Below, in pieces: positions 17,564-34,514 of a stretch of DNA of 37,324 nt. This stretch comes from Candidatus Micrarchaeota archaeon (GTDB taxonomy: Archaea; Micrarchaeota; Micrarchaeia; CAILAH01): NCBI GenBank assembly GCA_964401875.1, contig CAYOAB010000002.1:1-37324 (forward strand). Direction: 5' to 3'. The notes under the pieces are model-generated. The model was not told the origin of the DNA. It did no database searches and saw nothing but the letters and a program-made list of their open reading frames with translations. The position numbers and the translations under genes are program-made. Every line of letters begins with the position of its first letter. The stretch's first letter is position 1.

Positions 17564-18113
17564 AAACTCTATAATTATATTGTTTTTAATGTTTTTTCTT
17601 TTCGGTTGTATAACCACTCCTGAAAGGGAATTTGAAGAGATTGACCCTGAAAAAACAATAATTGAGGATGCCACGAATAAGCATCCGAATGCTGATATTA
17701 TTGAAATTGAAAGTTTAGATTTAATGGACGGTATTAATATTACAAGTGTAAGGGTTTCATATTACGTTGATACCATATGTCCTGAAAGGTACAGGTTAAG
17801 GTATAAATACCCAGAGTTCGGTTACGAAACAGGTATTCCTATTGAGATTGTTAAAAATTGTGAATACAGGTACACTCCAGATTCAATTATAACTTATGAA
17901 GAGCAAGCCATTGTTGCCGCACATACTTTAATGGGTAGTGATGAAGTTAATGAATTCATAGGCGCGGGTGAAAATATTAAAGTTAAAACCTCTTTCACAT
18001 CAAATACAGGAGTATGGAAAGTTACTTTTGAAAATATTTTAACAAATGAAACTATGTATGTTTCATTACAATCCAAAAACCCTAAGATATTAAATATTGA
18101 AAAATTAGAATAA
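17556..18113 (+). CDS. Small secreted protein with a lipobox-like signal (hypothetical)
   Basis: 185 aa. MYKNSIIILFLMFFLFGC is a signal peptide ending in L-F-G-C. The start overlaps the rfcS stop by 8 nt. Confidence 0.5.
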   Translation: MYKNSIIILFLMFFLFGCITTPEREFEEIDPEKTIIEDATNKHPNADIIEIESLDLMDGINITSVRVSYYVDTICPERYRLRYKYPEFGYETGIPIEIVKNCEYRYTPDSIITYEEQAIVAAHTLMGSDEVNEFIGAGENIKVKTSFTSNTGVWKVTFENILTNETMYVSLQSKNPKILNIEKLE

Positions 18114-19979
18114 TTTTTTCTTTTTAATTATTTTATATACACCTATTCCAATTAAAATAATGAAAATTAAACTTATCCCTATAAACCCTAACACAAAAAT
18201 ACCCATAAATACAAGATTTTCACTATTCTTTTTTTCACTTTCAATTAATTTCTCTGCGTTTTGTAAACAAACCCACGCTTCGTTAGGAGCAATTTCAAAA
18301 TTATCTTTCGCGCAACTCATTTCCAATTCTATTTCTTGAACGTTAACAAAAAGGTTTTGTTTCAATTCATTAAATTCCTCTTCAATCCTTTCAATGTTTT
18401 CATTAACTTTATCATAATTTTCTTTATACTCTACGTACTCTTCTTTAATTGAATTGATTTTAATTTCTAATTTTTCTATTAAACTTTCATTTTGTTCTAC
18501 TTCAATTATAAACTCTTCAATTTCTAAAACTTTCATTTTAAAGAATGAATAATTCTCAATTAATGGTTTATAATATTCAAAATCGTTTAATATTTTAACA
18601 AGTTCCTCTTCTTTAACAATTATTTCTTCCTCTTCTTCATTTTCATCTTCAACTTCACTTTCAACTTCTATAAAATCATTATATCTTTTTATAACAATTT
18701 CACTTTTCTCAACCAACTCGTGATATTTATTTTCATCTTTCAAATCTAAAATTTCCTGCAAGTCCCATATTATTCTCGTGGCACTATAATTTTTAGTTCC
18801 TTCATATGGTACTTCATCTAACATTTCATCCATATAATAACTAACATTTTGTTCAATCTTACTATTCAATTGTGGTCCCACTCCTGCAATATATCCCACT
18901 ACCACTGCATTTAAACCATTCAATTCTTCATATGCATCATTGTTATTAGTGTACGTGTAATTGTATGTCATGTTTTGAAACTCTTCACATTTATTCTGAA
19001 CATTTAATTTGTAATGTTGTGCTGCCTCATTCAATTCACATGCAATTTTAATTCTATTCAATATATCTGAATATAATGTTTCTACTTGTTCCTTGGTTTT
19101 AGTAGTTCTCTTATCAACTGTGTAAACTAATAATTCTTCTTTATCACACATTACATAGAGTTTATCATTCGCGAATGTAAAATCTTCAATTTTATCATCA
19201 CATTCCGGTACAATCGATTCAATTTTCTCACCACTCATTTTATCCATCAATGTGATTTTGTTATAGTTTTCAAATATGTAAACAAAAAGTTCATCCACCT
19301 CAATTCTTAACGGATTTTCTGTTACATATGCTTTCTTCCCTTTAGCTAATACGTCAATGTACTCATATGGTTCTTCACTATCATAAACAAAAATCTGTTC
19401 CAATCCTTTATCTAAAACATACATTCTTTCTTCTGAAATTGCTATGTCATATGGTTCCTCAAAATTAGCTTGAACACCATGACTTGAAACGCTCATTGAA
19501 CCTTTTGATAAATATTTATCTTTATCATACTCTTCCATGATGTTAATTCTTTTTCTTTCCCTATCCACTAAATAAATATGGTTTCCTTCATTTCCAATTG
19601 TTATTGCGTAAGGTGAATCAGGGAAATACGAATCACTGTTTCCTTTGAAAAGTTCCTTTTTGGTATCATAATTAATCTTGTAAACATAACCATTTTCCAA
19701 AACATAAATTATATCTTCAGTTATCCAAACATCTTTAATTCCATTGAATTCACTTCCAATGCTTCTTACTCTTTCAAGTTCCAATTCTTCGTAATCAATT
19801 TTATATCTCCAGATCGAAGAATCCGTAGAGAATGTTAAAAACAATTCATCCCCATAAGCATATATTTTATCTATATTTTCAATTCCACTAATGTCTATGG
19901 TTTCATTATAATCTATACTTATAGCTAAAACATTTCCAAGAATCAAAAATAATATTATTGTTAAATATTTTCCGTTCAT
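18105..19979 (-). CDS. Secreted repeat (beta-propeller-like) plus coiled-coil protein with a C-terminal TM anchor (hypothetical)
   Basis: 624 aa with an N-terminal signal (LTIILFLILGNVLA). It has recurring Y-V/I-x-D/E-type strand motifs (IYVLENGYVYK, IYLVDRERKR, MYVLDKGLEQIFVYD, LYVMCDKEELLVY). An E-rich coiled-coil and a C-terminal TM (FMGIFVLGFIGISLIFIILIGIGVY) follow. Its ATG overlaps the aIF5B stop (ATGA). Confidence 0.6.
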   Translation of the reverse strand: MNGKYLTIILFLILGNVLAISIDYNETIDISGIENIDKIYAYGDELFLTFSTDSSIWRYKIDYEELELERVRSIGSEFNGIKDVWITEDIIYVLENGYVYKINYDTKKELFKGNSDSYFPDSPYAITIGNEGNHIYLVDRERKRINIMEEYDKDKYLSKGSMSVSSHGVQANFEEPYDIAISEERMYVLDKGLEQIFVYDSEEPYEYIDVLAKGKKAYVTENPLRIEVDELFVYIFENYNKITLMDKMSGEKIESIVPECDDKIEDFTFANDKLYVMCDKEELLVYTVDKRTTKTKEQVETLYSDILNRIKIACELNEAAQHYKLNVQNKCEEFQNMTYNYTYTNNNDAYEELNGLNAVVVGYIAGVGPQLNSKIEQNVSYYMDEMLDEVPYEGTKNYSATRIIWDLQEILDLKDENKYHELVEKSEIVIKRYNDFIEVESEVEDENEEEEEIIVKEEELVKILNDFEYYKPLIENYSFFKMKVLEIEEFIIEVEQNESLIEKLEIKINSIKEEYVEYKENYDKVNENIERIEEEFNELKQNLFVNVQEIELEMSCAKDNFEIAPNEAWVCLQNAEKLIESEKKNSENLVFMGIFVLGFIGISLIFIILIGIGVYKIIKKKKLF

Positions 19980-21833: not shown

Positions 21834-22496
21834 GTGAGCGGAAACGATTTAGAATTTATTGATGTTATTGTACTAAAGAAAATTGATGCAGATTCTACCG
21901 TTGAATCATTCGGTTCAAGGTTAGGTGGAATATTTGAAGCGGCAAACATTTTAGGTGGCATTAAGCTTAAAGGGTATATAGATATTCATTCCATTATAGG
22001 TAATAGTCCAGTTATTATAACCGATAAAGGTAATTCTCTTTTACATGATTTAGATGTGCATGCAAGAACTCCTATAACTAAAATTGATAAAGCAGTTTTA
22101 GATTCAATAAAGAAAAGTTTCAAGGAACCCGGACAAATATCAAGGATGCTTAACATTAATTCAAGAGACATTGCTTATAGTTTAAACAAGTTATGGGTAA
22201 AAAATCTCATTAATGTAAGTTCTCATAATGGGAAAGTAGATATAACTTTAACAGTTCAAGGTTTTGAGGAAGAAATTTATATTAAGGAAGAATTGCCATT
22301 AGAATCTGACACAAATTCTGATAATATAAAAAATAAAATTGCCAAAGAAATAATTGATGAAGATGCTCAAGAAGTTTGTGATTTAAATAATGAGGATACT
22401 TCCTTCATGAGTAAATACTCCTTCGCCATTGTGGGATTAATTCTATTATTATTGGCAGTAATACTCGTTTTATTTATTGTGTTTGTAGGTATTTAA
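21834..22496 (+). CDS. Tail-anchored protein with a possible winged-helix segment (hypothetical)
   Basis: 220 aa with a GTG start; there is no in-frame ATG before residue ~105. GQISRMLNINSRDIAYSLNKLWVKNLI looks HTH-like. The C-terminal TM is FAIVGLILLLLAVILVLFIVFVGI. Confidence 0.45.
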   Translation: MSGNDLEFIDVIVLKKIDADSTVESFGSRLGGIFEAANILGGIKLKGYIDIHSIIGNSPVIITDKGNSLLHDLDVHARTPITKIDKAVLDSIKKSFKEPGQISRMLNINSRDIAYSLNKLWVKNLINVSSHNGKVDITLTVQGFEEEIYIKEELPLESDTNSDNIKNKIAKEIIDEDAQEVCDLNNEDTSFMSKYSFAIVGLILLLLAVILVLFIVFVGI

Positions 22497-22519: not shown

Positions 22520-23128
22520 ATGCTAAAAGAAGATTTAGATTTATTTTCAAAGAGTGGAATTAAAATTCCTAATTATTTAATAATTAAGCCTAATGAAGAG
22601 TTCAAATTGTTTAATGCTAAGAAGTATGTAGTTAAAGCTCTTGGTGAAAAACTTCTTCATAAAAGTGATATGGGTGCAGTTAAAGTTAATGTGGAAAGAG
22701 AAGACGTTGAAGTTGAAATGAGAAAACTAAGAAATAGATTAGGTAAAAATGTTGAAGCTTTCTTAATTCAAGAGATGGCAGAGAAAGGTACGGAAATAAT
22801 AATAGGTGCCAAAAAGGACGCTCAATTCGGTGATGTTGTTCTCTTCGGATTAGGCGGTATTCATGTTGAATTATACAAAGATGTTTCATTGCGTTTATGT
22901 CCTGTTACATTAGATGATGCTTATGAAATGATTGATGAAACTAAAGCTTCAGTTATACTAAATGGTTTTAGGGGTTCACCTCAAATTGATAGGAGGATGG
23001 TTGCTCAATTGATTATGAAAGTATGTCAAATAATGCAAAAGAATCCTGATATAAAAGAGATTGATTTAAATCCAGTAATTCTTTACTCGAGAGGGTATAG
23101 TGCAGTGGACATTCGTGTTATTAGATAA
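22520..23128 (+). CDS. acdB: ADP-forming acetyl-CoA synthetase, beta subunit (ATP-grasp)
   Basis: 202 aa. VVKALGEKLLHKSDMGAVKVNV ... FGDVVLFGLGGIHVELYKDVSLRLCP ... LNGFRGSP ... DLNPV is the ATP-grasp_5 pattern of ACD beta. The alpha subunit follows immediately. Confidence 0.75.
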   Translation: MLKEDLDLFSKSGIKIPNYLIIKPNEEFKLFNAKKYVVKALGEKLLHKSDMGAVKVNVEREDVEVEMRKLRNRLGKNVEAFLIQEMAEKGTEIIIGAKKDAQFGDVVLFGLGGIHVELYKDVSLRLCPVTLDDAYEMIDETKASVILNGFRGSPQIDRRMVAQLIMKVCQIMQKNPDIKEIDLNPVILYSRGYSAVDIRVIR

Positions 23129-23138
23129 AGGTGTTTTT

Positions 23139-24533
23139 ATGGTTAACAAAAAAATTAATGTCAAAAACGTTATGGAACCAAAGAGTATAGCTGTTATAGG
23201 GGCTTCAAAAAACCCCTCAAAAATTGGACATGCAATACTCAAAAACATGTTAATTAGTGGGTATATAGGTAAACTTTATGCAGTTAATCCATCAAGTGAT
23301 GAAATTTTAGGTGTTAAATGTTACAATTCAATTCTTGAAATTAAACATAAAATTGATTGTGCAATTATTTCAATTCCGGCAAAACTTGTTCCACAAGCTC
23401 TTGAAGAGTGTGGTAAGAAAGGAATTAAAGGGGCAATTATAATTAGTGGGGGTTTCAGGGAAGTTGGAGAAGTTGAACTTGAAAATCAAATCGTTGAAAT
23501 AAGTGAAAAGTATGGTATTGCTGTGATAGGGCCAAACTGTTTAGGTATTGTTAATGTTGAAAAGCATTTAGATAGCATTTTCCTTCCCACTTATAAAATG
23601 AAAAGGCCACAAGCAGGTAAAATAAGTTTCATTACACAGAGTGGTGCAGTAGGTTCAACTTTAATTGATTTAATTGGTGAATCAAACATTGGTATTTCCA
23701 AATTCATTTCTTATGGTAATGCAGCTGTGTTAAATGAAGCTGATTTAATTGAATATTTAAGAGAGGATAAACAAACTGAAATTATTGTAATGTACGTTGA
23801 AGGTGTTAAGCAAGGTAGAAGGTTTTATGAGGAGTTAAAGAAAACTACATTAAAGAAACCTGTAATTTTATTGAAGGCAGGTAAAGGTACACTCGCATCC
23901 AAAGCTGCAGCTTCACATACAGGTTCACTTGCTGGTGATTCTAAAGTATTTAGTTCCATGCTTAAACAGGCTGGTGTAATTGAAGCACAAGGTTTGGAAG
24001 AGCTTTTTGATATTTCAAAAATTTTCTTAACAAGGTTACCTAAAGGTAAAAACGTTTTCGTTTTAACAAATGGTGGTGGCTCGGGGGTTTTGGCCGTTGA
24101 CGCAATTGAAAGTTATAAAATGAAACTTGCATCATTTGATAAGAAAACAATTAACAAATTAAAAAAGAAATTACCTTCCCATGTAGTTGTAGGGAACCCA
24201 TTTGATGTAACTGGTGATTCTGGTAATGATAGGTATAGAATTGTACTTGAGGAAGCTGTTAAGGAACCTCACATTGATGCAATTATTGTAATTACATTAT
24301 TCCAAACAGCAGGGTTGAATGCGGAAGTAGTTCATGATATAATTAATGCTTCAAATTCAACTGATAAACCTTTAGTTGCTGTTGCTGCAGGAGGAGCGTA
24401 CACTAAATTACAATTAAGCATTTTGGAATCTTACGGTATACCTACTTATGAGTCACCAACACAAGCTGTTTACGTTCTTTCAAAAGCTTATTGGTACAAG
24501 AGGAAGCGTGACATGAATGTTAGAATTAAGTAA
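23139..24533 (+). CDS. acdA: ADP-forming acetyl-CoA synthetase, alpha subunit (CoA-binding plus ligase-CoA domains)
   Basis: The track ORF starts at 23100, but the ATG at 23139 (MVNKKINVKNVMEPKSIAVIGAS) follows the acdB stop by 10 nt. Motifs are PKSIAVIGASKNPSKIGH, GPNCLGI, SQSGA and AASHTGSLAG (phosphohistidine loop). Confidence 0.8.
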   Translation: MVNKKINVKNVMEPKSIAVIGASKNPSKIGHAILKNMLISGYIGKLYAVNPSSDEILGVKCYNSILEIKHKIDCAIISIPAKLVPQALEECGKKGIKGAIIISGGFREVGEVELENQIVEISEKYGIAVIGPNCLGIVNVEKHLDSIFLPTYKMKRPQAGKISFITQSGAVGSTLIDLIGESNIGISKFISYGNAAVLNEADLIEYLREDKQTEIIVMYVEGVKQGRRFYEELKKTTLKKPVILLKAGKGTLASKAAASHTGSLAGDSKVFSSMLKQAGVIEAQGLEELFDISKIFLTRLPKGKNVFVLTNGGGSGVLAVDAIESYKMKLASFDKKTINKLKKKLPSHVVVGNPFDVTGDSGNDRYRIVLEEAVKEPHIDAIIVITLFQTAGLNAEVVHDIINASNSTDKPLVAVAAGGAYTKLQLSILESYGIPTYESPTQAVYVLSKAYWYKRKRDMNVRIK

Positions 24534-25431
24534 TTTAATTTTACTTTTACTTCTTTACGTTAATGTTAAAGTCATTAAGAAATATTTAAGGTCTAACAAT
24601 ATTTTTCTTCTCTTTCTTTCAGGTGTTTTACTCTTTACTTTCTTCAACTATTGGTTAACAGTTTATTCTATTATTCTTGGTAATTTCGTTAACCATTTTC
24701 AAATTATTATGAACATTCTACCCATATTTATTTTCATTGTAATAATTGTACTTGAGAGTTTAAGAAAAAAAGAACAAATTGAAAAAAATAAAACAAGAGA
24801 TTACTTTTCTAAATATCTCTCTGAGAAAATAGTTGATAATTTACTTGAAGGTAAACTTGAACTCGGTGGTAAAAAGGAAGAAGTAACAATTCTTTTCACA
24901 GACATAAGAGGTTTCACTTCTCTCTCAGAGAAATTGGACGCACAGCAAATTGTTGAGCTTTTGAACGGGCATTTTGATATAATTACTCATGAGATTTTTG
25001 AAGAGGAAGGTACCGTTCTAAAATACATTGGAGATGCTACAATGGCAATATTTAACGCTCCCATTAAACATGAAAATCATACTGAAAAAACAATTAATGC
25101 ATGTATTAAAATACAAAAGAGAATGAACATTTACGCGGATTTGGTTCAACAAAAATATGGGATTGAAAACTTTTCAATAGGTATAGGTATAAATGTAGGT
25201 GAAGTTGTAATAGGTAACATTGGTTCCCACAAATATATGGATTATACCATAATTGGTGATCCAGTTAACACAGCATCACGTTTAAATGGGCAAGCGAGAG
25301 CGGGAGAAATTGTTGTTAGTGAAAAAGTGTATTCCAAAGTTAAAAGTAAGTTTAAGTTCAGTGAACCTGAAAGTGTTAAGGTTAAGGGAAAGGAAAAAGA
25401 AGTTAAAATATATAGGGTGATTTACACATGA
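24517..25431 (+). CDS. Membrane-anchored class III nucleotide (adenylate/guanylate) cyclase
   Basis: 304 aa with about three N-terminal TM helices followed by a CHD domain. VTILFTDIRGFTSLSE and LKYIGDATMAIF carry the two metal-binding Asp, and IIGDPVNTASRL carries the Asn/Arg transition-state motif. The start overlaps the acdA end by 17 nt. Confidence 0.8.
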   Translation: MLELSNLILLLLLYVNVKVIKKYLRSNNIFLLFLSGVLLFTFFNYWLTVYSIILGNFVNHFQIIMNILPIFIFIVIIVLESLRKKEQIEKNKTRDYFSKYLSEKIVDNLLEGKLELGGKKEEVTILFTDIRGFTSLSEKLDAQQIVELLNGHFDIITHEIFEEEGTVLKYIGDATMAIFNAPIKHENHTEKTINACIKIQKRMNIYADLVQQKYGIENFSIGIGINVGEVVIGNIGSHKYMDYTIIGDPVNTASRLNGQARAGEIVVSEKVYSKVKSKFKFSEPESVKVKGKEKEVKIYRVIYT

Positions 25432-25949
25432 ATTTAATTGAATATGTAAAGGCATTTTTCACATCACGTGATGATATACTTTCAATTATAAATTCAAACG
25501 TTTCATACCAAAATATAATTACTTTCATTTTTGCAGTTTTCCTAATTTCTGTACCCACAACATTCCAAATTTACAATTATGTTTTCAACATAATCCTATT
25601 AGGAATTTCAATTTCTTTAATCACTTTATTAAGTTCATATTTAATTTCAATGTTAAACAAAAAAGATTTATTCAATACATTTTTAGGTAATTTAAACTTC
25701 GTTTCATTCATAGTTTTCTGTAATGTTTTCATTATACTTTTAATGTATTTGATAGGCCTACCCTTCAATGCAAGTTCAATTTTAATATCCGTTGCGGCCA
25801 CTCTCATTTCAACATACTATTTCATAGTAATTTTAACTTATTCCTTTTCTTTACAAATAAAACAATGTAAAATGAGAAAATTATATGAGATTTTAATATT
25901 GGCCTTATGGTTCTTTTTCGTTTTCTTAATACTCCCTTTGACTATTTGA
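25428..25949 (+). CDS. Five-TM small membrane protein (Yip1/DUF1282-like layout, tentative)
   Basis: 173 aa. A short cytosolic N-terminus (MNLIEYVKAFFTSRDDILSII) is followed by five hydrophobic helices. Its ATG overlaps the cyclase stop (ATGA). Confidence 0.5.
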   Translation: MNLIEYVKAFFTSRDDILSIINSNVSYQNIITFIFAVFLISVPTTFQIYNYVFNIILLGISISLITLLSSYLISMLNKKDLFNTFLGNLNFVSFIVFCNVFIILLMYLIGLPFNASSILISVAATLISTYYFIVILTYSFSLQIKQCKMRKLYEILILALWFFFVFLILPLTI

Positions 25950-25980
25950 TTTTTATTCTTTTACACGTAATTCTATTAGA

Positions 25981-26481
25981 ATGAAATTAAGTGAAGAGAT
26001 TTTACAATTAATAAAGGATAAGAAATACGATGAATGTTTAACTAAATGTGAAAAGAAAATAAAAATTGATCCTGAAAATTCTGTTGCTCTTTTCGGAGTG
26101 GCCTTTGCTTTATTTCACAAAGGGGAATATGAAAAATCATACGCTTACGCTAAAAAGAACTTACTTAAAGTAAGAGAAAAAGATGTTAATATTTTACTCA
26201 GGATGGTTGAGGTTTACAATTTAATTTCTATGAATAAGTATAATGAAGACATGAAGAAAATTTTGGATTCTTTAGAAAAGGAAAAAAGTAATGAGGATGT
26301 GTCTAATCATGTTAAAACTTTTTTGATAATGTACCATATTTTTAATAAAAATACTGAAACTGCAGATAAGATGTATGGAGAATTAAACGAACAAAAGAAG
26401 AAAGAGTTTCTTAATTTCTTAATTGAAAATGTAATTAAAGGTAAAACTGCTAAAATTATGAAAAACTATTTAAATTTCTAA
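25981..26481 (+). CDS. TPR-like repeat protein
   Basis: 166 aa and all-helical. DPENSVALFGVAFALFHKGEYEKSYAYAKKNL matches the TPR consensus. Confidence 0.6.
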   Translation: MKLSEEILQLIKDKKYDECLTKCEKKIKIDPENSVALFGVAFALFHKGEYEKSYAYAKKNLLKVREKDVNILLRMVEVYNLISMNKYNEDMKKILDSLEKEKSNEDVSNHVKTFLIMYHIFNKNTETADKMYGELNEQKKKEFLNFLIENVIKGKTAKIMKNYLNF

Positions 26482-26496
26482 TAGTAATATCTTTAC

Positions 26497-27894
26497 ATGT
26501 CTCCTCAAGAACAGATTACACAAAAAGAAAATAAACAAAATGAATCTATTTTAAGACAAGAATCTTTTGAGACTATGTTAACAATTATGAACAAAGCAAG
26601 TTCAAGAGGTTCAGAATATATTGGATATTATAATCTAGCAAGTGGACATTTACGTGATAATTTAAAAGCCACAAAGGAGATAAGACAACAAGCATTTAAT
26701 TTTGTAATTCAAGAATTGTCTCCAGAAGCAAAGAGAGAACTGGTTGGCATACTTAAAAGTGAAAGAAAAAAACAAGAAATTGAAAATATTGTTGATCTCA
26801 CTTTTGATGTTAAAACTCATGGTCTTTTAATGGAAAAAGGAATAGATTTTGGTGAGGGGCCGATAAGTATTAGATCTATGAAAAATTTTGGGATAGGTAA
26901 ATATGATGAAGATTCAAAAAAATTTGAATTAACATATGAAGAAAAAGAATTATTTTTAGAATTACAAAATAAATATAAAGAAGAAAAATTAGATTCTCTC
27001 ATTAATTTTAATTATTATGAGGATACACTTCATGCCACTGCAGGGGTTATGAAAATTATGAAAGAAGGGAAGAGTAAAGAAGAAGCTATGCAAATAGTTG
27101 ATGATTTAAGAAAAGCGTTTGGAATTAAGAAATTTGGAAGGTATGATGCGGCAACATTAATTGAACAACATAATAATACAGAAATAGATAGTGAAACTGG
27201 AACGTATAAATTAAAAATAGATAGTACAAAAGAACAAACTATATTTATAAGTGGGCATTATGAATATAATGGTGCGGCATATAAAATTGAAGGGGAGAAT
27301 ACAGCATCCAGTATAACTAGAAAAATTAATGGATTAAAAAAAGAAGGTAAAGCACAAGTTTGGATATATGAAGAAAGTTACGGTGATGAAGTGTTTACTA
27401 CTCTTCAAAATTTTGATGCGGAAATGGAAAATAAAAAATATAATATAGTAATAAGTGCTCATGGAAATAGTCAAGAAGTATTATTTGGAGGCGAAAGAAA
27501 AAAGAACCCAAATGAAAGGCAAAAAGATGATCATTATTTAAATATGGAAAATATGAAACAACAATCAGAATTTTTAGAAAGTTTGAAAGGAAAGGTGGAT
27601 AACATAATTATAATGGCTTGCTCAAATAGAACAGAAGAAAATATAAATTATCTAGCAAAAGAATTCCATTTAACAACTAATGCTACTGTTATTTCTGCGG
27701 GAGAACAAGTATATGGAACTATATTTAGAAATAAAGAACCTAAAATAATATTTAAATATGGAAACCGTATAGAAGGGGGAATTCATTATGGTGCACAAGT
27801 TTATGCAGGTGGAGTAATAAGCGGGTACTTAAAAAGTCAAGGAGAATACTATGAGGGAAAAAATTTAGAACCAAATTATAGAAATAAATTATAA
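26497..27894 (+). CDS. Hypothetical cytoplasmic protein with a C-terminal caspase-fold-like (clan CD) His/Cys dyad
   Basis: 465 aa with no signal peptide. A hydrophobic strand plus His-Gly (KYNIVISAHGN, H322, nt 27460-27462) is followed 53 residues later by a hydrophobic strand plus Cys (NIIIMACSN, C375, nt 27619-27621). This arrangement is seen in caspases, CHAT domains and C80 CPD domains. The assignment is by pattern only. Confidence 0.45.
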   Translation: MSPQEQITQKENKQNESILRQESFETMLTIMNKASSRGSEYIGYYNLASGHLRDNLKATKEIRQQAFNFVIQELSPEAKRELVGILKSERKKQEIENIVDLTFDVKTHGLLMEKGIDFGEGPISIRSMKNFGIGKYDEDSKKFELTYEEKELFLELQNKYKEEKLDSLINFNYYEDTLHATAGVMKIMKEGKSKEEAMQIVDDLRKAFGIKKFGRYDAATLIEQHNNTEIDSETGTYKLKIDSTKEQTIFISGHYEYNGAAYKIEGENTASSITRKINGLKKEGKAQVWIYEESYGDEVFTTLQNFDAEMENKKYNIVISAHGNSQEVLFGGERKKNPNERQKDDHYLNMENMKQQSEFLESLKGKVDNIIIMACSNRTEENINYLAKEFHLTTNATVISAGEQVYGTIFRNKEPKIIFKYGNRIEGGIHYGAQVYAGGVISGYLKSQGEYYEGKNLEPNYRNKL

Positions 27895-27898
27895 ATAA

Positions 27899-28561
27899 TT
27901 ATTTTTCTAAAGTTCCATAAAAGTTTCTAAAGGTATTTAATGAATCTAACCTAATATTAAAATCAATTTCATTTGATTTTCCTCCCTCTTTTTCTCCCTT
28001 TATTGTTAATTTGTCCTCTTCAAAATTAATTGAATGTGAAACAATTTTTTCATTTGAAGAGATTAATTGAAATGAAAAATCTCTTTTTTCTTTTAAAGAT
28101 TTTTCATAACTTGAAAAGTGTAAATATCCTTCATTTACTCCAGTCAAATAAATAGTACCATTGTTTTCAAAAATATGAGAAAAGTTTTTTGAGTTTTCTA
28201 ATTTGTATGTTTTTTCACCATCTTTAATATGTATTTCATTTCCACTTATTTTAGCAGAAAAATTTGTGTTTGGAATTTTAGCATATTTTTCATTTAAAGT
28301 TACATTTTTTTCCTGTTGTGTTTTTGAATATGTAATCGTACTTAATCTTGAATGTTCTATTTCTTTAGTAGATTGAGAAACCATATTTACACCTTTGTTA
28401 TTATCATCATTATTACATCTCTCACATGAAATTAAAATGCTTTCTGTTAAAATTAAACCCATTATAACAAATTTGTTGAATTTTTGTTTAATTGAATTTT
28501 TCTTCATCATATGTGAGTGCATTAAAAAAGTTAAGGGTTCAGAATATTTAAACCTTTCCAT
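27899..28561 (-). CDS. Small secreted protein with a lipobox-like signal (hypothetical)
   Basis: 220 aa in the track; the start is more likely M18/M19 (ATG at 28510 or 28507): MMKKNSIKQKFNKFVIMGLILTESILISC. The remainder is beta-rich. It is divergent from the 1383-aa gene across a 75-nt spacer. Confidence 0.55.
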   Translation of the reverse strand: MERFKYSEPLTFLMHSHMMKKNSIKQKFNKFVIMGLILTESILISCERCNNDDNNKGVNMVSQSTKEIEHSRLSTITYSKTQQEKNVTLNEKYAKIPNTNFSAKISGNEIHIKDGEKTYKLENSKNFSHIFENNGTIYLTGVNEGYLHFSSYEKSLKEKRDFSFQLISSNEKIVSHSINFEEDKLTIKGEKEGGKSNEIDFNIRLDSLNTFRNFYGTLEK

Positions 28562-28636: not shown

Positions 28637-31600
28637 ATGAGGAGCTTCAAAACTAAGAAAATTGTAGCGGGCGCTATGTTGGCCGCACATTTATTTACTG
28701 TTACGCCTATTTATGCTAATGATAATGTTAATTCTAACGAGAATAAAAATCAAAAAGTAATAATTGAAAAAACTGATGTTGAATTTTTACAGGAATGTCT
28801 AGATAAAAAAGATTACATTTCATTTCAAAAGAAGTATGATGAATTAATTGAGAGAAAATTAATTGATGCGGAACCCATTGTAAAGTATGCACCAGTTTTA
28901 GGGCCTAAAACTAAGAAGGCAATATCTATATTACAAAAGAATGGATATCTTTTAGATGAAGAGAAAACATTCCAGATTAAAGAAGTTAAAGAAGTTAAAA
29001 AAGAAGAAAAAGAAAAGAAAACATCAATTGAAGAATTTAAAGATGAAATGAAAAGAACACCTTATGATTCATGGGACGAACAAAAACAACTTGAAAAATC
29101 ATTAACTATACTTGAAAAAAGAACAGATTATTTGAAATTATTATATAGTGGTGATACTGAATACCCCTACTCTTATTACATAGGTGAAAGGTGGTTAATT
29201 GAATTCACAAAAACGTTAAACCAACTTGAAGCACAATACTCAAAAACTTTAAGGTATGAAAATTCAAAAGAAAAAATGGATGAAATAATAAAGAAAAATT
29301 TCCCTGAATATGAAAGTTATGAAAAGTTAATGGGTTCCATGATTATTTTGAGAAATAACGTTCAATATGTTCTAAACGACTTGAAATTAATGAAGAATAA
29401 ATTAAAGAATGCACAACCAGTTCAGATAAATCAAATTATAATTGAAACAAAAAAAGAAATTTCTAATAGATTAAATGAAGTAACAAATAGAATTTTAATT
29501 TTAGATTCAAACAAAATGCCTTATCTCTACTCCTATTCAATTGAAAGTAATTTAAAACCCAACTATTTAGATGTTTTAGAACACATATCTTCAAATGAAG
29601 ATTTCATTAAACATAAGAAATGGTTAACTGAAAATTATTTCAAAACAACAACTTTCGGTAATTATAATAAAGATGAAGTTATACTCGCTTACAATGAACT
29701 TTCGTTGGGCACTCAGCACGCTCTCTTTAAATATTACTTTAATGAACACAATAAAAATAACATTCCAAACAGTGAAAAGTTTGCATTACAAGTATTCGGA
29801 TTAAATGTTCAAGGATATGAATCTGCCGCATCAATAGTTCAATACTTAAACAGGATGGATAAATTTGATGCTAAAACACAACTTGAAATATATAGGAGAA
29901 TTGGTGCGGGAACAACTTTCGCTGAGACGGAAAGTGATTGGATTAATTTAACAACTTATATTAACACGGATGTAAATGAAGCTTTAGGTAAAGTACTTAA
30001 AACCGATATTGTTATGATAAGGGATCAAACTAAGGATAGGTATGAACTTAAATCAGCAAGTATAGGTACACCAGGTTTCAATGTCCGTGAAGATATAAAC
30101 ACAAAAGGTAGCGGTAGTGTACACTTACAGGAAGCGTTCACTATGATTGAACAAGGTTATTACAACAATGATTCAAACGTTCAAGGTTCAAACATAAACG
30201 TTAACACAGCACCACATTTAAATGGTACTAATTTAGAAAACGCAAGGCCTAAAGGGCATTCAAGAAACATTGATGACATGTTCGGAAGGAACAGAGTTGA
30301 AACAACAGTTCCAAAAACTAATGTTCAAATTGTTAAGAGCATTGCTGATTTAGGCGTTTTCAATTACAGGTACGTTCAAAAGGGAACATTCACAAATTTA
30401 ATTTCAAGAACTGAAGAAAATTTAGATTACACAAAAACAACTAACCTTGGTCAAAATGAAACTGAAGAAACAAGTAAAGTTGATGTTACTTACACAAACA
30501 ATTTAACAAGTTATTTGAACGCTGATGGGCCTTCAAGGTATTCTAATAATCAATTCAATTGGGGTAGAAGTAAATCTACATCTTATTTAACTTACGAAAA
30601 TGAAAATGAGAGAAGAACAAATGACTTTGAAAGTGTTTCCGATTCTTTCAGTTTAAATTCTAAAAATAGAAATTTATTTTCCACAAATAATTTTGGTATA
30701 AGTTTATTTGACTTGGAAAGTAATTTGAAAGTAGGTGAATCACCAAACACTTCTTCAACTCAAAAAACTGAAATTATAACACCTGGTTTAGAAGATGAAT
30801 CATACACAATTAACAAAACAAAAGATATGAAAGGAGATTATGAATATTATTTAGATTCAAAAATGTTTAGTGGTTGGTATGAAAATTATTCAAGAGGTAA
30901 CTTTGGTGAAATAGGTTTATTCAACGAGGTTAAAACTTTTAGAGATAATGAAACAAATGAAAACACTATAATTAGAAACGGAACAGATTTAGATAAATTT
31001 AAAGAATGGGACTTTGAAAACATTTACAATTTAAAGGAATGGCAATTACATGCAGGTACACAACAATTAAATGTTTACACAAATTCTCTTTTCTTTAGTG
31101 GAATGTATAAAGGTGTATTCACTATAAGACCTGAAAATTCATACTATTTAAAATTCGGTGAAATTGAAAATCAACAAGGTGAAAAAACAAAAATTCACAA
31201 TTATTACAAAGATGAACAAGAAATCCCTTCACACATAAAGAGTGAAAGAGATGTTTTCAATTCAGATGTTGTATACCATGGTGCCGGAGGAGTATTAGGT
31301 ATACCTTTCAATGGAAATAATGAAATAGGTTTAGGTTACGTTCACAATAAAACTTTAATGGATAAAGATAAACATTTAGGTTTACTCTCCTATTCATGGC
31401 ATGAAAATTCAATTGCTGCTCTTTCATTATACCAAGGTTCTTACAATATAAGTAGAGGTTCAAACCCTTACTCTTTGTTCACAAATCAAGTTAACCAATT
31501 AACAAGGAACGATTTGTTTAATTATAAATTCCCAAGAGATTCAAAGTCAATGGAACAATTATATTTGAATTCTCAGGAAGCAACTTTCATTGAAGCAACA

Positions 31601-32788
31601 GTTTTGAACAAAGATAATTTGAATATAACAGCTTTCGCGGGTAGTGGTGAAGAGTATAACAGAATACAAGCAGGTGCAATTTCAAATTATGTACATGATT
31701 TATTCAAATTAAAAGTTGGCGGTATTTACGATGAAGGTAACAATCTTGAAAGGGAAAATGGTGCAGGTAACTTATATTTAAGTAATAAAAAAGAAACAGC
31801 ATACATTTTAGGTTCAATATTAGCACAAAAAGAATTGGGTTGGAAAACCGATGAAGCATTAAGATATTTAGGTGAATTATTTGGTTTAAAAGTTGAAACT
31901 AAAGCGTACACTTCATTCTCAGAAAATAATAAATTAAATGAAAAAGGTAGATTTATTGGAGCAGAAATAAGTTTCAAAGATGATACAGTTGTCCTCTATT
32001 ACTTTGGTGGTAAAGATGTTTACAGTGAAAACATTGAAGAGCATAAAGAGTTTAATTTAATTGGTGCATCAGGTAAATTCACACCAAACCTTTCAATTGA
32101 AGCTTATGGTACTTGGAAAGGTGATTTAGGTAACGGTGCATTCTTACATCCCATAATAACACACAATAACAATTTCGGTATAACTGCATTGATTGGTTAC
32201 ACGCAAGATAAAGTTAATTTCAATCTCTTAAATGAAAGAGTGAAAAAAGATTACTTAACAACAGGTTTAGGTGTAGGTTTCAGAAAAGGTGGTTTAAGTT
32301 TACTTCTACTTCCAATTTCTTACACCAACAATTTTGAGTACAAACACATAATTGAAACGGGTTTAAGTGGTACTTACTGGTTACCTGGCGGTTCATTGGG
32401 TTTCGGTACAGGTTATGTTCATAACATTATACAAAACCCTACTAAAAGTATGTTAGAAAATCCTTTCAAACTCCCATACAAAGATAACAATTTCAATTCA
32501 AGAATGTTTTACTTGTATGGTGAAGGTTCCGGTAGAGGTATAATGGGATTTGATTATACAAAGTTCAGGTTAACGGGTAAATTAGGTGAAAATGAACTTT
32601 ACAAATTATACCAAACAATTGCAACTCTTGAAATGAGTGATTTCTGGAAAAGAATTTATTTTGATTTATCTTTCACTTACAAAATGGATAAGGGAGATTT
32701 AATCTTACAAGATAATTCCAGTGAATTAAAAAATGTAATGGAAAAATATAATGTAAAAGGAATTTTAGGAGTTGAATTTTACTTTTAA
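28637..32788 (+). CDS. Giant secreted protein: signal peptide, peptidoglycan-binding-like motif, coiled-coil/helical region and a C-terminal outer-membrane beta-barrel-like domain
   Basis: 1383 aa.
- The Sec signal is MRSFKTKKIVAGAMLAAHLFTVTPIYA|ND.
- LGPKTKKAISILQKNGYLLDE resembles the second half of a PG_binding_1 repeat.
- The last ~450 aa consist of short amphipathic Gly/aromatic-rich strands (NLSIEAYGTW, FGITALIGYT, TTGLGVGFR, ETGLSGTYWL, SLGFGTGYVHN, RMFYLYGEG, GIMGFDYTKF, RIYFDLSFTYK).
- The protein ends GILGVEFYF, with Gly at -5, an aromatic at -2 and a terminal Phe. Confidence 0.65.
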   Translation: MRSFKTKKIVAGAMLAAHLFTVTPIYANDNVNSNENKNQKVIIEKTDVEFLQECLDKKDYISFQKKYDELIERKLIDAEPIVKYAPVLGPKTKKAISILQKNGYLLDEEKTFQIKEVKEVKKEEKEKKTSIEEFKDEMKRTPYDSWDEQKQLEKSLTILEKRTDYLKLLYSGDTEYPYSYYIGERWLIEFTKTLNQLEAQYSKTLRYENSKEKMDEIIKKNFPEYESYEKLMGSMIILRNNVQYVLNDLKLMKNKLKNAQPVQINQIIIETKKEISNRLNEVTNRILILDSNKMPYLYSYSIESNLKPNYLDVLEHISSNEDFIKHKKWLTENYFKTTTFGNYNKDEVILAYNELSLGTQHALFKYYFNEHNKNNIPNSEKFALQVFGLNVQGYESAASIVQYLNRMDKFDAKTQLEIYRRIGAGTTFAETESDWINLTTYINTDVNEALGKVLKTDIVMIRDQTKDRYELKSASIGTPGFNVREDINTKGSGSVHLQEAFTMIEQGYYNNDSNVQGSNINVNTAPHLNGTNLENARPKGHSRNIDDMFGRNRVETTVPKTNVQIVKSIADLGVFNYRYVQKGTFTNLISRTEENLDYTKTTNLGQNETEETSKVDVTYTNNLTSYLNADGPSRYSNNQFNWGRSKSTSYLTYENENERRTNDFESVSDSFSLNSKNRNLFSTNNFGISLFDLESNLKVGESPNTSSTQKTEIITPGLEDESYTINKTKDMKGDYEYYLDSKMFSGWYENYSRGNFGEIGLFNEVKTFRDNETNENTIIRNGTDLDKFKEWDFENIYNLKEWQLHAGTQQLNVYTNSLFFSGMYKGVFTIRPENSYYLKFGEIENQQGEKTKIHNYYKDEQEIPSHIKSERDVFNSDVVYHGAGGVLGIPFNGNNEIGLGYVHNKTLMDKDKHLGLLSYSWHENSIAALSLYQGSYNISRGSNPYSLFTNQVNQLTRNDLFNYKFPRDSKSMEQLYLNSQEATFIEATVLNKDNLNITAFAGSGEEYNRIQAGAISNYVHDLFKLKVGGIYDEGNNLERENGAGNLYLSNKKETAYILGSILAQKELGWKTDEALRYLGELFGLKVETKAYTSFSENNKLNEKGRFIGAEISFKDDTVVLYYFGGKDVYSENIEEHKEFNLIGASGKFTPNLSIEAYGTWKGDLGNGAFLHPIITHNNNFGITALIGYTQDKVNFNLLNERVKKDYLTTGLGVGFRKGGLSLLLLPISYTNNFEYKHIIETGLSGTYWLPGGSLGFGTGYVHNIIQNPTKSMLENPFKLPYKDNNFNSRMFYLYGEGSGRGIMGFDYTKFRLTGKLGENELYKLYQTIATLEMSDFWKRIYFDLSFTYKMDKGDLILQDNSSELKNVMEKYNVKGILGVEFYF

Positions 32789-33840
32789 TTTTTAATATAA
32801 TAAAAACCTAAAGAAAGTAAAATTAATCCAGCTACCCCTCCACATAAATGTGCACTTTCTTGTATTTCCTCTTCAATAGGGGAAGAAGTACTAATTTGGT
32901 TAACTGTTGCAACTGCATACAAACTTAAACCATCCGTGTAAACTAATATTATGTAATAATCCCCTGCATCAATTATTTCAGGTTCAATTATGGTGAAATT
33001 CCCATTGTCATCTATTCTAACAACAACAATATCCCCACTTAATTTACTTTTTGGAATTTCAAATTTAATTGTTGCTTTTTCTATATCTTCACCATCTTTA
33101 ATGTTTTTTAAATCTACTCTTACACTTTCAATTATTTCAGTTTCATAACCTTCAAATTCTTCCTGTAATATTTCCTCTAATTTTTGAATATCCTCTTCTG
33201 TTGTTTCACTTGGGGTTATTGAAGCATTTTCATTGAAATTCAATGATAAAGCTACTATATGAAGTGTTTTAGGAGCATTTTCAATTGTAATTTCATATTT
33301 ATCTTCTTCATTTTTTTCAATATTTGTTGTAAATTCTTCTTCTTCCTCAATTATACTTTCTTCACAATAAGGAACAAATGTCCAGTATTCACTTAATTCT
33401 AAAGTAACACCATCTTCATTTTCATTAACATAAAATTCTGCCCATTCACTTGTACATCTAACTTCATTTCCTTCTTTATAACAAGAACATGGGTATCCAA
33501 TTATACTTGAACATAAATATTCAATTATCATAGGGTTATCTGTTGCAATGTGTGTACTTGTTTTGAATTTCATAAATTCAATTGTTGTTTCGTCACCAAA
33601 TGTAATTACAAGTTCTTCTGTTGGTTTAAATCCACATTTAATTTCATTTCCAATTTCACATGTACATTCCGATTTAAATCCTTCCGTACAATATTTCTCT
33701 AAAATTATTTTATCGTTCAAAGCTTCTTTAGGTAAACAATCTTCATTCACAACTGAGAAAATAGTTCCCATTAAGAACAGTAACATTAGAATAGATATTT
33801 TTTTCATAATTAAATTAAAAAGAGAAATTATTTTAACCAA
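32785..33840 (-). CDS. Secreted Cys-repeat surface protein with a C-terminal TM anchor (hypothetical)
   Basis: 351 aa in the track; the start is probably the ATG at 33807 (MKKISILMLLFLMGTIFS signal). Two copies of a C-x7-C-x-C-x2,3-GNE-x2-C module are present, followed by an E-rich linker, a beta domain and the C-terminal LCGGVAGLILLSLGFYYIKN. Its stop overlaps the stop of the convergent 1383-aa gene. Confidence 0.6.
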   Translation of the reverse strand: MVKIISLFNLIMKKISILMLLFLMGTIFSVVNEDCLPKEALNDKIILEKYCTEGFKSECTCEIGNEIKCGFKPTEELVITFGDETTIEFMKFKTSTHIATDNPMIIEYLCSSIIGYPCSCYKEGNEVRCTSEWAEFYVNENEDGVTLELSEYWTFVPYCEESIIEEEEEFTTNIEKNEEDKYEITIENAPKTLHIVALSLNFNENASITPSETTEEDIQKLEEILQEEFEGYETEIIESVRVDLKNIKDGEDIEKATIKFEIPKSKLSGDIVVVRIDDNGNFTIIEPEIIDAGDYYIILVYTDGLSLYAVATVNQISTSSPIEEEIQESAHLCGGVAGLILLSLGFYYIKN

Positions 33841-34514
33841 CTGGCATAATCTTTCTTTAATTCCGCTAACAATTCTCTTGCTTTTTTGTTTCCTTCTTTT
33901 TTTAATTTGTAAATTAATTCAATGTCACGGAAATCTTTTTTTCCTTCTTGGTATTCTTCTAAAATTACAGCACCTTTCTTTAACAATAACAATGCAATTT
34001 CATAACAAGAACCTTTTGATTCTTCAGTTGTTTCCATTCCATTTTGTAATGCTAAATAGAATGCATTAAAATAAAAATCAGGATCAGGTTCTTCAATATT
34101 AACATTTTTTTCTAATAAATATTCAACAATTTGAATGTTACCTTCATTTATAGCTACCTGTAAAGGCGTGAATCCATTTTCATCTTTCTTATTAACATCA
34201 AGTCCAACAATTTCAACTAAATATTTCATAGAAATTGTAGAATTATATTCCGCTGCTCTGTGTAAGAAATCAATTGAATATTTCTCTTCAATTCCCTTAT
34301 AATCTCCTTTAAACTCTCTTTCAAGCTCTTCAATTACCCCAAACATTACAAAATCATTAATTTTTTCTGTACTGTGAAATGTTTTTACTTTTTCATCAAT
34401 TTTCTTTTTATTATACAATTCAGGATTTTCTTTCTTAATTTTTTCAAATCTTTTTAATTCTAAGATTGATAATACGTTCTTTTGAGGACCATTAATGATA
34501 TTTTTATTTTTCAT
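33828..34514 (-). CDS. Ankyrin-repeat protein
   Basis: 228 aa. DENGFTPLQVAINEGNIQIVEYLLEKNVNI is a canonical ANK repeat, and flanking repeats are FLHRAAEYNSTISMKYLVE and FYLALQNGMETTEE...ALLLLKKGA. There is no signal peptide. Confidence 0.85.
   Translation of the reverse strand: MKNKNIINGPQKNVLSILELKRFEKIKKENPELYNKKKIDEKVKTFHSTEKINDFVMFGVIEELEREFKGDYKGIEEKYSIDFLHRAAEYNSTISMKYLVEIVGLDVNKKDENGFTPLQVAINEGNIQIVEYLLEKNVNIEEPDPDFYFNAFYLALQNGMETTEESKGSCYEIALLLLKKGAVILEEYQEGKKDFRDIELIYKLKKEGNKKARELLAELKKDYASWLK

Follow-up and report, generated by a model that had tools for sequence, protein, structure and literature searches.

A stretch of 37,324 nucleotides (nt) from the chromosome of a Candidatus Micrarchaeota archaeon (DPANN; assembly GCA_964401875.1, contig CAYOAB010000002.1, positions 1 to 37,324), hereafter the window, carries a run of co-directional genes that leads from an ADP-forming acetyl-CoA synthetase (ACD, AcdAB) through a class III nucleotide cyclase, a protein with five transmembrane (TM) segments (TM173) and a TPR-like protein (TPR166) to a 465-amino-acid (aa) protein (p465). 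We consider it probable that this run is a mosaic of three separately inherited units in a compact chromosome and not one system. Unit A would be the ACD operon, unit B the cyclase together with TM173, and unit C the TPR166-p465 pair with a convergent gene, m220. This reading draws on synteny and indel patterns, on the genes present, on their residues and on a predicted fold, from which we infer a cAMP product, a cyclase-TM complex, protease activity and TPR binding. The features that are referred to below are the following.

21834-22496, plus strand: winged helix-turn-helix (wHTH)-like protein, 220 aa, first gene of the co-directional run
22520-23128, plus strand: acdB, beta subunit (ATP-grasp) of the ADP-forming acyl/acetyl-CoA synthetase, PF13549 ATP-grasp_5
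23139-24533, plus strand: acdA, alpha subunit of the same enzyme, with CoA_binding_2, Succ_CoA_lig and Ligase_CoA_2
24517-25431, plus strand: membrane-anchored class III cyclase, most likely an adenylate cyclase, PF00211
25428-25949, plus strand: TM173, 5-TM protein of 173 aa from a hydropathy scan, new family
25950-25980, plus strand: TTTTTATTCTTTTA..., a T-rich spacer that separates the cyclase-TM unit from the TPR gene
25981-26481, plus strand: TPR166, TPR-like protein of 166 aa with sub-threshold Pfam TPR matches
26497-27894, plus strand: p465, 465-aa protein without a sequence family
26497-26781, plus strand: N-terminal helical module of p465 (N-module), residues 1 to ~95, with a predicted local distance difference test score (pLDDT) of 83-89
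26989-27894, plus strand: C-terminal domain of p465, residues 165-465, with a predicted caspase-like (clan CD) fold from AlphaFold2 (AF2) and Foldseek
27899-28561, minus strand: m220, open reading frame (ORF) for a 220-aa protein with a lipoprotein-like signal (…LISC…), convergent to p465

When the corresponding loci of relatives (designated L, with p465-family proteins designated P) were compared, the complete set of cyclase, TM173, TPR166 and p465 genes was found only in the close relatives L002 and L108, where the four proteins are 70-91% identical to those of the window. In L007 the TPR gene (67%) comes 37 nt behind an acdA that is 90% identical, and next to it is a p465-type N-terminus (49%). 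On its left the acdA-TPR junction aligns to the end of the window acdA and on its right to the T-rich spacer between the TM and TPR genes, and the cyclase and TM genes are absent with base precision. The outgroups L104 and L106 hold the pair, so that the parsimonious explanation is its deletion in the lineage of L007. L104, L106 and L111-L113, whose cyclases are 41-64% identical to that of the window, have the cyclase and TM genes without TPR or p465. In L003/L004 the gene in front of p465 (74% identical) is one for an FKBP isomerase and not a TPR gene, and in L006 (the Micrarchaeota metagenome-assembled genome (MAG) SKW92) P0006 stands alone between PAC2 and CYTH genes at gaps of 460 and 266 nt. 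The sequence-only reading had proposed that the last four genes of the run are one signalling or defence cassette, to be recognised by their co-occurrence elsewhere. The genes are separate in all of these loci (L007, L104, L106, L111-L113, L003/L004 and L006) and the set recurs only in the near-identical L002 and L108, which essentially refutes the proposal; comparative synteny thus dissolves the apparent cassette. The T-rich spacer at 25950-25980 may mark an evolutionary boundary and is a possible candidate for a terminator and/or a TATA region, and L007 has the same spacer in front of its TPR gene. The T-run as a terminator in particular was set aside, as at 30% GC chance alone would give T5 runs, and these are weak evidence despite the conservation in L007.

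The tight spacing of the genes does not contradict such a mosaic. All six plus-strand ORFs from acdB to p465 that had been described earlier are real, with the coordinates and the junctions given for them (in order, +10, -17, -4, +31 and +15 nt), and so are their family labels (ATP-grasp_5 for acdB, CoA domains for acdA, PF00211 for the cyclase and weak TPR matches). The run is, however, one of seven genes and not of six, since the wHTH-like gene ends 23 nt upstream of acdB. For acdA there is an alternative GTG start at 23100, and the ATG at 23139 is the one favoured by relatives. The coding density of the window is about 95% and unrelated neighbours lie -16 to +52 nt apart (26 junctions, whole window). 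Junctions of -16, +6 and +24 nt link genes for an M17 peptidase, a transglutaminase-like protein, the RFC large subunit and the Lhr helicase, further junctions of -8, -4 and -13 nt also connect plainly unrelated genes, the aIF5B gene overlaps that of an unrelated 624-aa membrane protein (p624) by 4 nt, and convergent pairs are spaced 0, -9, -4 and +4 nt. The spacing within the run is therefore the background of this genome and no proof of functional linkage. Upstream of the run only one gap is clearly of promoter size, the divergent 85 nt in front of the wHTH gene. An archaeal promoter with TATA box and B recognition element (BRE) needs no more than about 30 nt when the mRNA is leaderless, or can lie in the preceding gene, and the earlier argument that the junctions leave no room for promoters is thus invalid. 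Archaeal housekeeping genes (aIF5B, RFC, Lhr, iPGM) surround the run. The lesson for method is that in compact DPANN genomes overlapping co-directional genes alone do not show a system.

The cyclase is a genuine class III nucleotide cyclase, as had been claimed for it. It matches PF00211 over residues 119-299 (E 3e-33, 115.3 bits against a cut-off of 21.9) with a catalytic domain at about 115-302, and D129, K169, D173, T244, N251, R255 and K290 are invariant in 18 members of the family. The first six of these, D129 and D173 being assigned to the metals, K169 and T244 to the base-specifying pair and N251 and R255 to the transition state, align to the same residues of the best solved relative, CyaB of P. 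aeruginosa (3r5g, E 1e-31), which is followed by other bacterial class III cyclases. A Lys/Thr pair is the signature of class IIIb adenylate cyclases. Because Lys169 and Thr244 are determinants of the purine type, the product is most likely cAMP made from ATP by a homodimer-type, class IIIb-like enzyme. Three TM segments at the N-terminus (residues 2-20, 29-47 and 61-79 in a hydropathy scan) and a positive loop at residues 21-28 would put the catalytic domain in the cytosol. Orthologues are full-length (~300 aa), with 54-64% identity in Micrarchaeia and 40-47% in further archaeal MAGs. The identity of L104 to the window is 64% for the cyclase compared to 63% for aIF5B and 67% for acdA, and that of the L106 cyclase is 62%. 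The cyclase thus diverges at the rate of aIF5B and acdA, which is typical of a housekeeping gene and not of an arms-race gene. In PADLOC the catalytic domain matched PDLC00734 (E 6.7e-29) and 11 other PycC models, while TM173, TPR166 and p465 gave nothing beyond chance-level noise and no PycTM match. The PycC models also fit ordinary PF00211 cyclases and their match is therefore non-discriminating. About a dozen viral class III cyclase domains on IMG/VR contigs (L088-L100) are 37-38% identical over residues 80-301. A search of the literature on Micrarchaeota or DPANN adenylate cyclases, or on a cyclase module, found nothing relevant.

A homologue of TM173 directly follows the cyclase gene in every locus with readable downstream sequence, namely the window, L002, L104/105, L106/107, L108, L109, L111, L112 and L113 (the L109 contig stops inside the TM gene, its order acdB-acdA-cyclase-TM being that of the window). 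The junctions are -4, -1 or +8 nt over a range of cyclase identities of 41-98%. In L111-L113 both flanks of the pair are entirely different and acd is absent, so that what is conserved is the pair and not the neighbourhood. TM173 had been called a 5-TM membrane protein, and the hydropathy scan bears this out with five segments. It puts the 24-aa N-terminus and loops of 17-18 aa on the cytosolic side and predicts that the C-terminus is outside. Neither a profile nor a threshold of E<=10 brought up a family for TM173 in Pfam, NCBIfam, PADLOC or PDB. A profile of the six closer members, searched against 2500 ORFs (1.38 Mb), added only L112 (8e-4) and L113 (4e-3), the next match being at 0.6, and the L112 homologue reaches E 1e-5 after one profile iteration. 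Assignments of TM173 to SLATT or STING_TM were rejected (best STING_TM 0.09 in one member, SLATT 2.6 or weaker), as was a supposed resemblance to Yip1-like proteins, for which there was no significant match. TM173 has no cyclic-nucleotide-binding domain, and its five TM segments, short N-terminus (24 aa) and loops of at most 18 aa leave no room for one; it does not appear to be a killer effector gated by a cyclic nucleotide monophosphate (cNMP). We regard unit B as a real conserved module of a 3-TM-anchored adenylate cyclase and a dedicated 5-TM protein, which would form one membrane complex in which the TM partner senses for or regulates the cyclase. That TM173 is the membrane subunit or regulator of the cyclase is a guess from the strict gene pairing and the translational coupling. 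The pair is modestly novel, its 5-TM partner being of an undescribed family. About 6 kb upstream of the most distant pair there is a Cas12f1-like_TNB (TnpB-type) gene (L113:1-651); no other gene of mobile-element type was seen around the copies of the pair that we examined.

The genes in front of the pair have a distribution of their own. AcdB matches PF13549 with E 2.8e-52, and the corresponding region also matches archaeal acetate--CoA ligase models. AcdA scores 499 bits against TIGR02717 (AcCoA-syn-alpha), under the equivalog cut-off of 567 bits, and its acetate specificity is putative; the acd proteins also match the related 3-hydroxypropionate and 4-hydroxybutyrate CoA ligase models. The domains expected of AcdAB are all present, that is, CoA-binding, succinyl-CoA-ligase-like and ligase-CoA domains in alpha and ATP-grasp_5 in beta. 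The best genome matches of acdA are in MAGs of Ca. Micrarchaeia/Micrarchaeota (67% and 61% identity) and acdB and acdA are adjacent in 54 loci. The wHTH-like protein, which has only weak HTH_45/DnaD-type matches and a C-terminal TM helix at residues 199-217, has homologues directly upstream of acdB in about 15 Micrarchaeota loci and in L104, L106, L108 and L109, and the order wHTH-acdB-acdA is kept in about 15-20 Micrarchaeota loci that were retrieved with acdA. Unit A would be an operon for an ADP-forming acetyl-CoA synthetase that makes ATP from acetyl-CoA. No homologues of the cyclase, TM173, TPR166 or p465 were found in the fetched flanks of the 80 loci of the acdA set (up to 8 kb on each side, some contigs being shorter), and in L008, the closest genome, acdA is followed by convergent genes for TFE, RIO kinase, aIF1A and aIF2-beta.

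The link between the acetyl-CoA synthetase and the cyclase which the sequence-only reading had drawn is real in one subclade and is not general, acd being absent from L111-L113. It is only in this subclade that the cyclase-TM pair is placed behind acdA. There the block of p624 (minus strand), aIF5B (minus strand), wHTH, acdB, acdA, cyclase and TM genes is conserved in L104 and L106, in which the TM gene is followed by unrelated convergent genes without TPR or p465. The overlap of acdA and the cyclase gene is 17 nt in the window, and the junction is -8 in L104 and L106, -14 in L108 and -17 in L109. The pair is docked behind acdA by overlapping stop and start codons, which makes its co-transcription with the ATP-yielding enzyme probable, and this would couple the output of cAMP to the energy and carbon status of the cell.

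The p465 protein is a rare one, and among 15 billion proteins its family has about six members. Four relatives came from a word-indexed search over 5.8 billion clusters, and HMMER, run exhaustively over 1.84 billion representatives, contributed P0005 and P0006; a second p465 profile search gave no further members, a genome scan with the p465 profile gave no locus, and no homologues were found in plasmid or phage records. An origin of p465 or of the cyclase from a mobile element or virus was rejected, given the lack of a plasmid or phage match for p465 and the only ~37%-identical, generic viral homologues of the cyclase. For p465, searches of Pfam, NCBIfam, PADLOC and PDB returned nothing meaningful, also when a 7-sequence profile was used and E<=10 was allowed, the best sequence matches being an RxLR effector (0.04), an Ltp lipoprotein repeat (0.05) and a shark antigen receptor (E 0.08). 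The Peptidase_C14, CHAT, C80, C11, C13 and C25 profiles matched none of the seven members at E<=10, and p465 has no SAVED, CARF or cNMP sensor.

The structure predictions were more informative. In the full-length AF2 model the N-module is helical with pLDDT 83-89 and the C-terminal half is below pLDDT 50. Foldseek with this model gave nothing below E 0.27 and nothing for the N-module, and its second rank was a MARTX cysteine protease domain (CPD) with probability 0.57. A model of residues 165-465 from five sequences has a mean pLDDT of 69, a predicted TM-score (pTM) of 0.74 and core blocks at about 70-94, residues 248-301 in the numbering of the model being disordered. It shows a beta-alpha-beta arrangement with His322-Gly directly after the strand at 151-156 of the model and Ala-Cys375 directly after that at 203-209. 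These two motifs, about 53 residues apart in p465, would supply a catalytic dyad, in which His322 (codon 27460-27462; 'ISAHGN', 'NIVISAHG') pairs with Cys375 (codon 27619-27621; 'IMACSN', 'NIIIMACS'). The two residues are invariant in the window p465, P0002, P0003, P0005 and P0006 and identical in P0001, and all five aligned members keep the H, G, A, C and S of the motifs, over identities from 98% to as low as 26% (P0006). The dyad is missing from P0004, which has an unrelated C-terminal domain. When the C-terminal domain was compared to PDB by Foldseek, Tce1 (9qpe_G, E 1.5e-4) came first and was followed by dozens of chains of caspase-1, -2, -3, -4 and -11 and by SAVED-CHAT (8tl0), with probabilities of 0.9-1.0, E-values from 1.5e-4 to 1e-2 and a target-normalised TM-score of up to 0.52. 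Asparaginase and other Rossmann-like folds were among the weaker matches. The viral library BFVD gave metacaspase-like and caspase matches. With moderate confidence we take the C-terminal domain to be a cysteine peptidase domain of clan-CD type in a new sequence family. The earlier suggestion that the 465-aa protein is a putative caspase-fold protease is upheld to the extent that AF2, Foldseek and BFVD predict the fold and the His/Cys pair is conserved. As an orphan with predicted proteolysis it is modestly novel. Downstream of P0006 in L006 (Ca. Micrarchaeota MAG GCA_026419815.1), at 266 nt, there is a gene for a CYTH-domain protein (L006:5787-6320). CYTH is the superfamily of class IV adenylate cyclases and triphosphatases, and this second nucleotide-cyclase-type neighbour of the p465 family may be a coincidence. 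Residues ~85-115 of P0006 (L006:3857-5521; …VKALQSALGVKADGKWGPASAAAASLY…) may resemble a PG_binding_1 motif; no precomputed Pfam domain is listed for this stretch.

The p465 family is modular, and its neighbours vary with its parts. P0004 (in L005, with the same type in L007) shares residues 1 to ~92 of p465 and is unrelated in the remainder, and P0003 (L003/L004) shares residues 70-465 at 74% identity and has a different N-terminus. The protease part is found in the window, L001-L004 and L006, and the middle segment (101-235) also in L108, where the contig ends. A phmmer search with only the N-module matched TPR-linked loci exclusively. TPR166 lies upstream of the p465-family gene in all six loci with the N-module and in none of the three without it. 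It is all-helical, its Pfam TPR matches are all below the gathering thresholds with consensus-TPR matches at residues 12-61, and it is confined to the clade of the window with one extra locus in a metagenome scan; its assignment to a specific chaperone family was rejected, as only consensus-TPR matches were obtained. At the other end, m220, for which Pfam, NCBIfam and PADLOC hold no family, has homologues (50-99% identity) in L001-L004, where they are convergent to p465. Its place in L005 is taken by an unrelated, co-directional ORF for a lipoprotein-like protein of 284 aa (called gene 262 aa), and the p465 homologue there is the one with the different C-terminal domain. Unit C would be a young locus, variable at the level of the genus. 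From the co-variation TPR166 most likely binds the N-module as adaptor or chaperone, and the pattern points to a partnership of TPR166 with the N-module and of m220 with the protease domain, as in polymorphic effectors. The C-terminal third of P0004 (L005:160-1494) is rich in Gly, Ser, Thr, Ala and hydrophobic stretches (…GTVASLGVSTIFSTGTLSSMLFAKGLVKGAELGADYTIGAAS…) and is reminiscent of membrane-active glycine-zipper domains.

That the cyclase, TM, TPR and caspase-like proteins make up one signal-activated effector or anti-virus module, in which the cyclase signal would act on a membrane effector and/or, via a TPR scaffold, on the protease, seems to us extremely improbable. Such a module would agree with four co-directional, tightly spaced genes that stand together in L002 and L108, with the match of the cyclase domain to PADLOC PycC models (E 7e-29) and with SAVED-CHAT among the structural matches of the caspase-like predicted fold of p465. 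It does not agree with the set being split in L007, L104, L106, L111-L113, L003/4 and L006, with PycC matches that are generic to PF00211 and a Lys169/Thr244 pair of purine type, with a TM173 that has neither a cNMP-binding domain nor a PycTM match, with a p465 that has no CARF, SAVED or cNMP sensor, with a slow-evolving cyclase that is vertically conserved in housekeeping synteny, or with the lack of homologues in plasmid or phage records. The view that any of this amounts to a new defence system is not supported. There is also little probability that the seven genes are one integrated operon which joins ACD, cAMP synthesis and a regulatory protease in one pathway. The TPR and p465 genes are absent from L104/L106, which retain the other five, the cyclase and TM genes are dispensable in L007, and junctions that are equally tight occur between plainly unrelated genes of the window. 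The junctions are overlapping or very short all along the run, the overlap of acdA and the cyclase gene is kept in three lineages, and the sole clear promoter-sized upstream gap is that of 85 nt in front of the wHTH gene, but archaeal promoters may sit within coding sequence.

For p465 itself the alternative is that it is a non-protease protein with a caspase fold or another alpha/beta fold, and that the TPR, p465 and m220 genes are fast-evolving, lineage-specific genes without an effector function. We regard this as unlikely, though with a chance that is by no means negligible. It is consistent with the lack of a peptidase-family profile match, with the moderate confidence of the model and its disorder at residues 248-301, with the absence of both dyad residues from P0004 and with the asparaginase and Rossmann-like folds among the weaker structural matches. 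The His-Gly and Ala-Cys motifs after hydrophobic strands are, however, invariant from 98% to 26% identity, P0006 included, and caspases, CHAT and a CPD-like effector make up nearly all of the top 50 PDB matches; the C-terminal region of P0004 is non-homologous, hence its missing dyad is uninformative. A bolder joint interpretation, which we hold to be distinctly unlikely, is that TPR166-p465-m220 serves an episymbiotic DPANN cell as an archaeal polymorphic effector locus, with a TPR adaptor for the N-module, a swappable C-terminal warhead and an exported partner for each, and that the cyclase and its 5-TM protein (TM17x) are a two-subunit membrane adenylate cyclase hard-wired to the ACD operon. 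The warheads would be a clan-CD/CPD-like protease here and the Gly/Ser/Thr-rich hydrophobic domain in the relative in L005/L007. We prefer the mosaic of three units, and several points weigh against it. Co-transcription of all seven genes is possible. The cAMP product was read from residues alone, and the role of TM173 is a guess about a protein without a family or a structure model. None of the clan CD families matches p465 by sequence profile at E<=10, its fold comes from a 5-sequence AF2 model with a mean pLDDT of 69, and its Foldseek values are modest (E 1e-4 to 1e-2, TM-score 0.3-0.5). The co-variation of TPR with the N-module and of m220 with the C-terminal domain rests on two to three independent lineages, most of them on contigs of 2-3 kb, and the relatives compared are a limited sample.

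Several other features of the window were recorded. Next to m220, at 28637-32788 on the plus strand, a protein of 1383 aa with an N-terminal signal-like segment and the C-terminus ...GVEFYF has no Pfam, NCBIfam or PADLOC family; in L005 the p465-type gene has a 66%-identical N-terminus downstream of it, and the protein is probably a large surface protein. The 624-aa protein p624 (18105-19979, minus strand), which overlaps aIF5B by 4 nt, has signal-like and C-terminal TM segments. Its pairing with aIF5B is kept in L104, L106, L108 and L109, where its homologues are only 25-59% identical and show faint NHL matches. An element at 2786-2855 on the plus strand, which Rfam reports as a second tRNA with 33 bits, just over the gathering score, and which ARAGORN does not call, may be an atypical archaeal tRNA. 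An ankyrin-repeat protein of 228 aa (33828-34514, minus strand) and a transglutaminase-core protein of 692 aa (4479-6557, minus strand) are unusual for a reduced archaeal genome and are possibly of host-interaction type.

Archaeal cAMP signalling is poorly understood, and a vertically conserved cyclase with an obligate 5-TM partner is a testable entry point to it. The pair may show how reduced symbiotic archaea sense their energy and carbon status, especially where it is fused to ACD, the main enzyme of ATP formation at the substrate level. As for p465, it would add an orphan archaeal branch to the caspase/CPD-like proteases, and its domain-swapping resembles that of bacterial effectors and could bear on how DPANN archaea and their hosts interact.

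When the run is compared with known systems, the remark of the sequence-only reading that it matches no described system stands, the PADLOC matches being those of the cyclase to generic PycC models. With Pycsar it shares a two-gene layout in which a membrane protein comes after a class III-type cyclase. The receptors of Pycsar combine a cyclic-nucleotide-binding domain with TM helices or TIR (PMC11224242), whereas TM173 has no such domain and no PycTM match. In the cCMP cyclase EaPycC, Arg142 and Gln144 stand next to the metal Asp146 (PMC11224242), whereas the window cyclase has Lys169 and Ile171 at these positions and a Lys/Thr pair as in adenylate cyclases, a residue-level comparison that would separate the two in specificity. 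The pair is also vertically conserved in housekeeping synteny, unlike the patchy occurrence of a defence island. Compared to SAVED-CHAT, the TPR-CHAT of type III CRISPR and Craspase, the window has no sensor or signal generator (no CARF, SAVED, Cas10, CD-NTase, cas or CRISPR genes were found among its ORFs), and the TPR is a separate, generic protein of 166 aa. The nearer likeness of the cyclase is to class IIIb CyaB (3r5g), with which it has in common the PF00211 domain, the metal Asp, Lys and Thr, the Asn/Arg residues and an N-terminal membrane anchor. It differs from CyaB-type enzymes in being archaeal, in its 3-TM anchor without a MASE, CHASE, HAMP or GAF domain and in being always followed by a translationally coupled 5-TM protein.

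Unit A has the two-subunit alpha and beta domain organisation of archaeal ACD and differs from it in the beta-alpha order, in the wHTH membrane protein in front, in an alpha score below the NCBIfam equivalog cut-off and, in this subclade, in running on into the cyclase gene. As in polymorphic toxin and effector loci, the N-module and the C-terminal domain of p465 are exchanged independently among close relatives, the small upstream TPR protein co-varying with the former and the downstream exported protein with the latter. What sets the locus apart is that the putative partner m220 is convergent, is itself exported and is unrelated to known immunity families, and that no secretion genes were seen in the window and no signal peptide or known trafficking domain was identified. 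With respect to the clan CD peptidases, p465 is outside the C14, CHAT and C80 profiles and has no fusion to SAVED, CARF or TPR, and it is an archaeal family of about six members with an extra conserved helical segment (LHATAGV..., FGIKKFGRY) before the sheet. Tce1 of the H3 type VI secretion system (H3-T6SS) of P. aeruginosa is a putative cysteine protease with a His/Cys dyad like that of the TcdB CPD (PMC13323088). The predicted p465 domain has the same placement of His-Gly and Ala-Cys after strands as caspases (C14), CHAT, the toxin CPDs (C80) and Tce1, and like Tce1 and the CPDs embedded in TcdB and MARTX, p465 would carry its protease domain behind an N-terminal extension.

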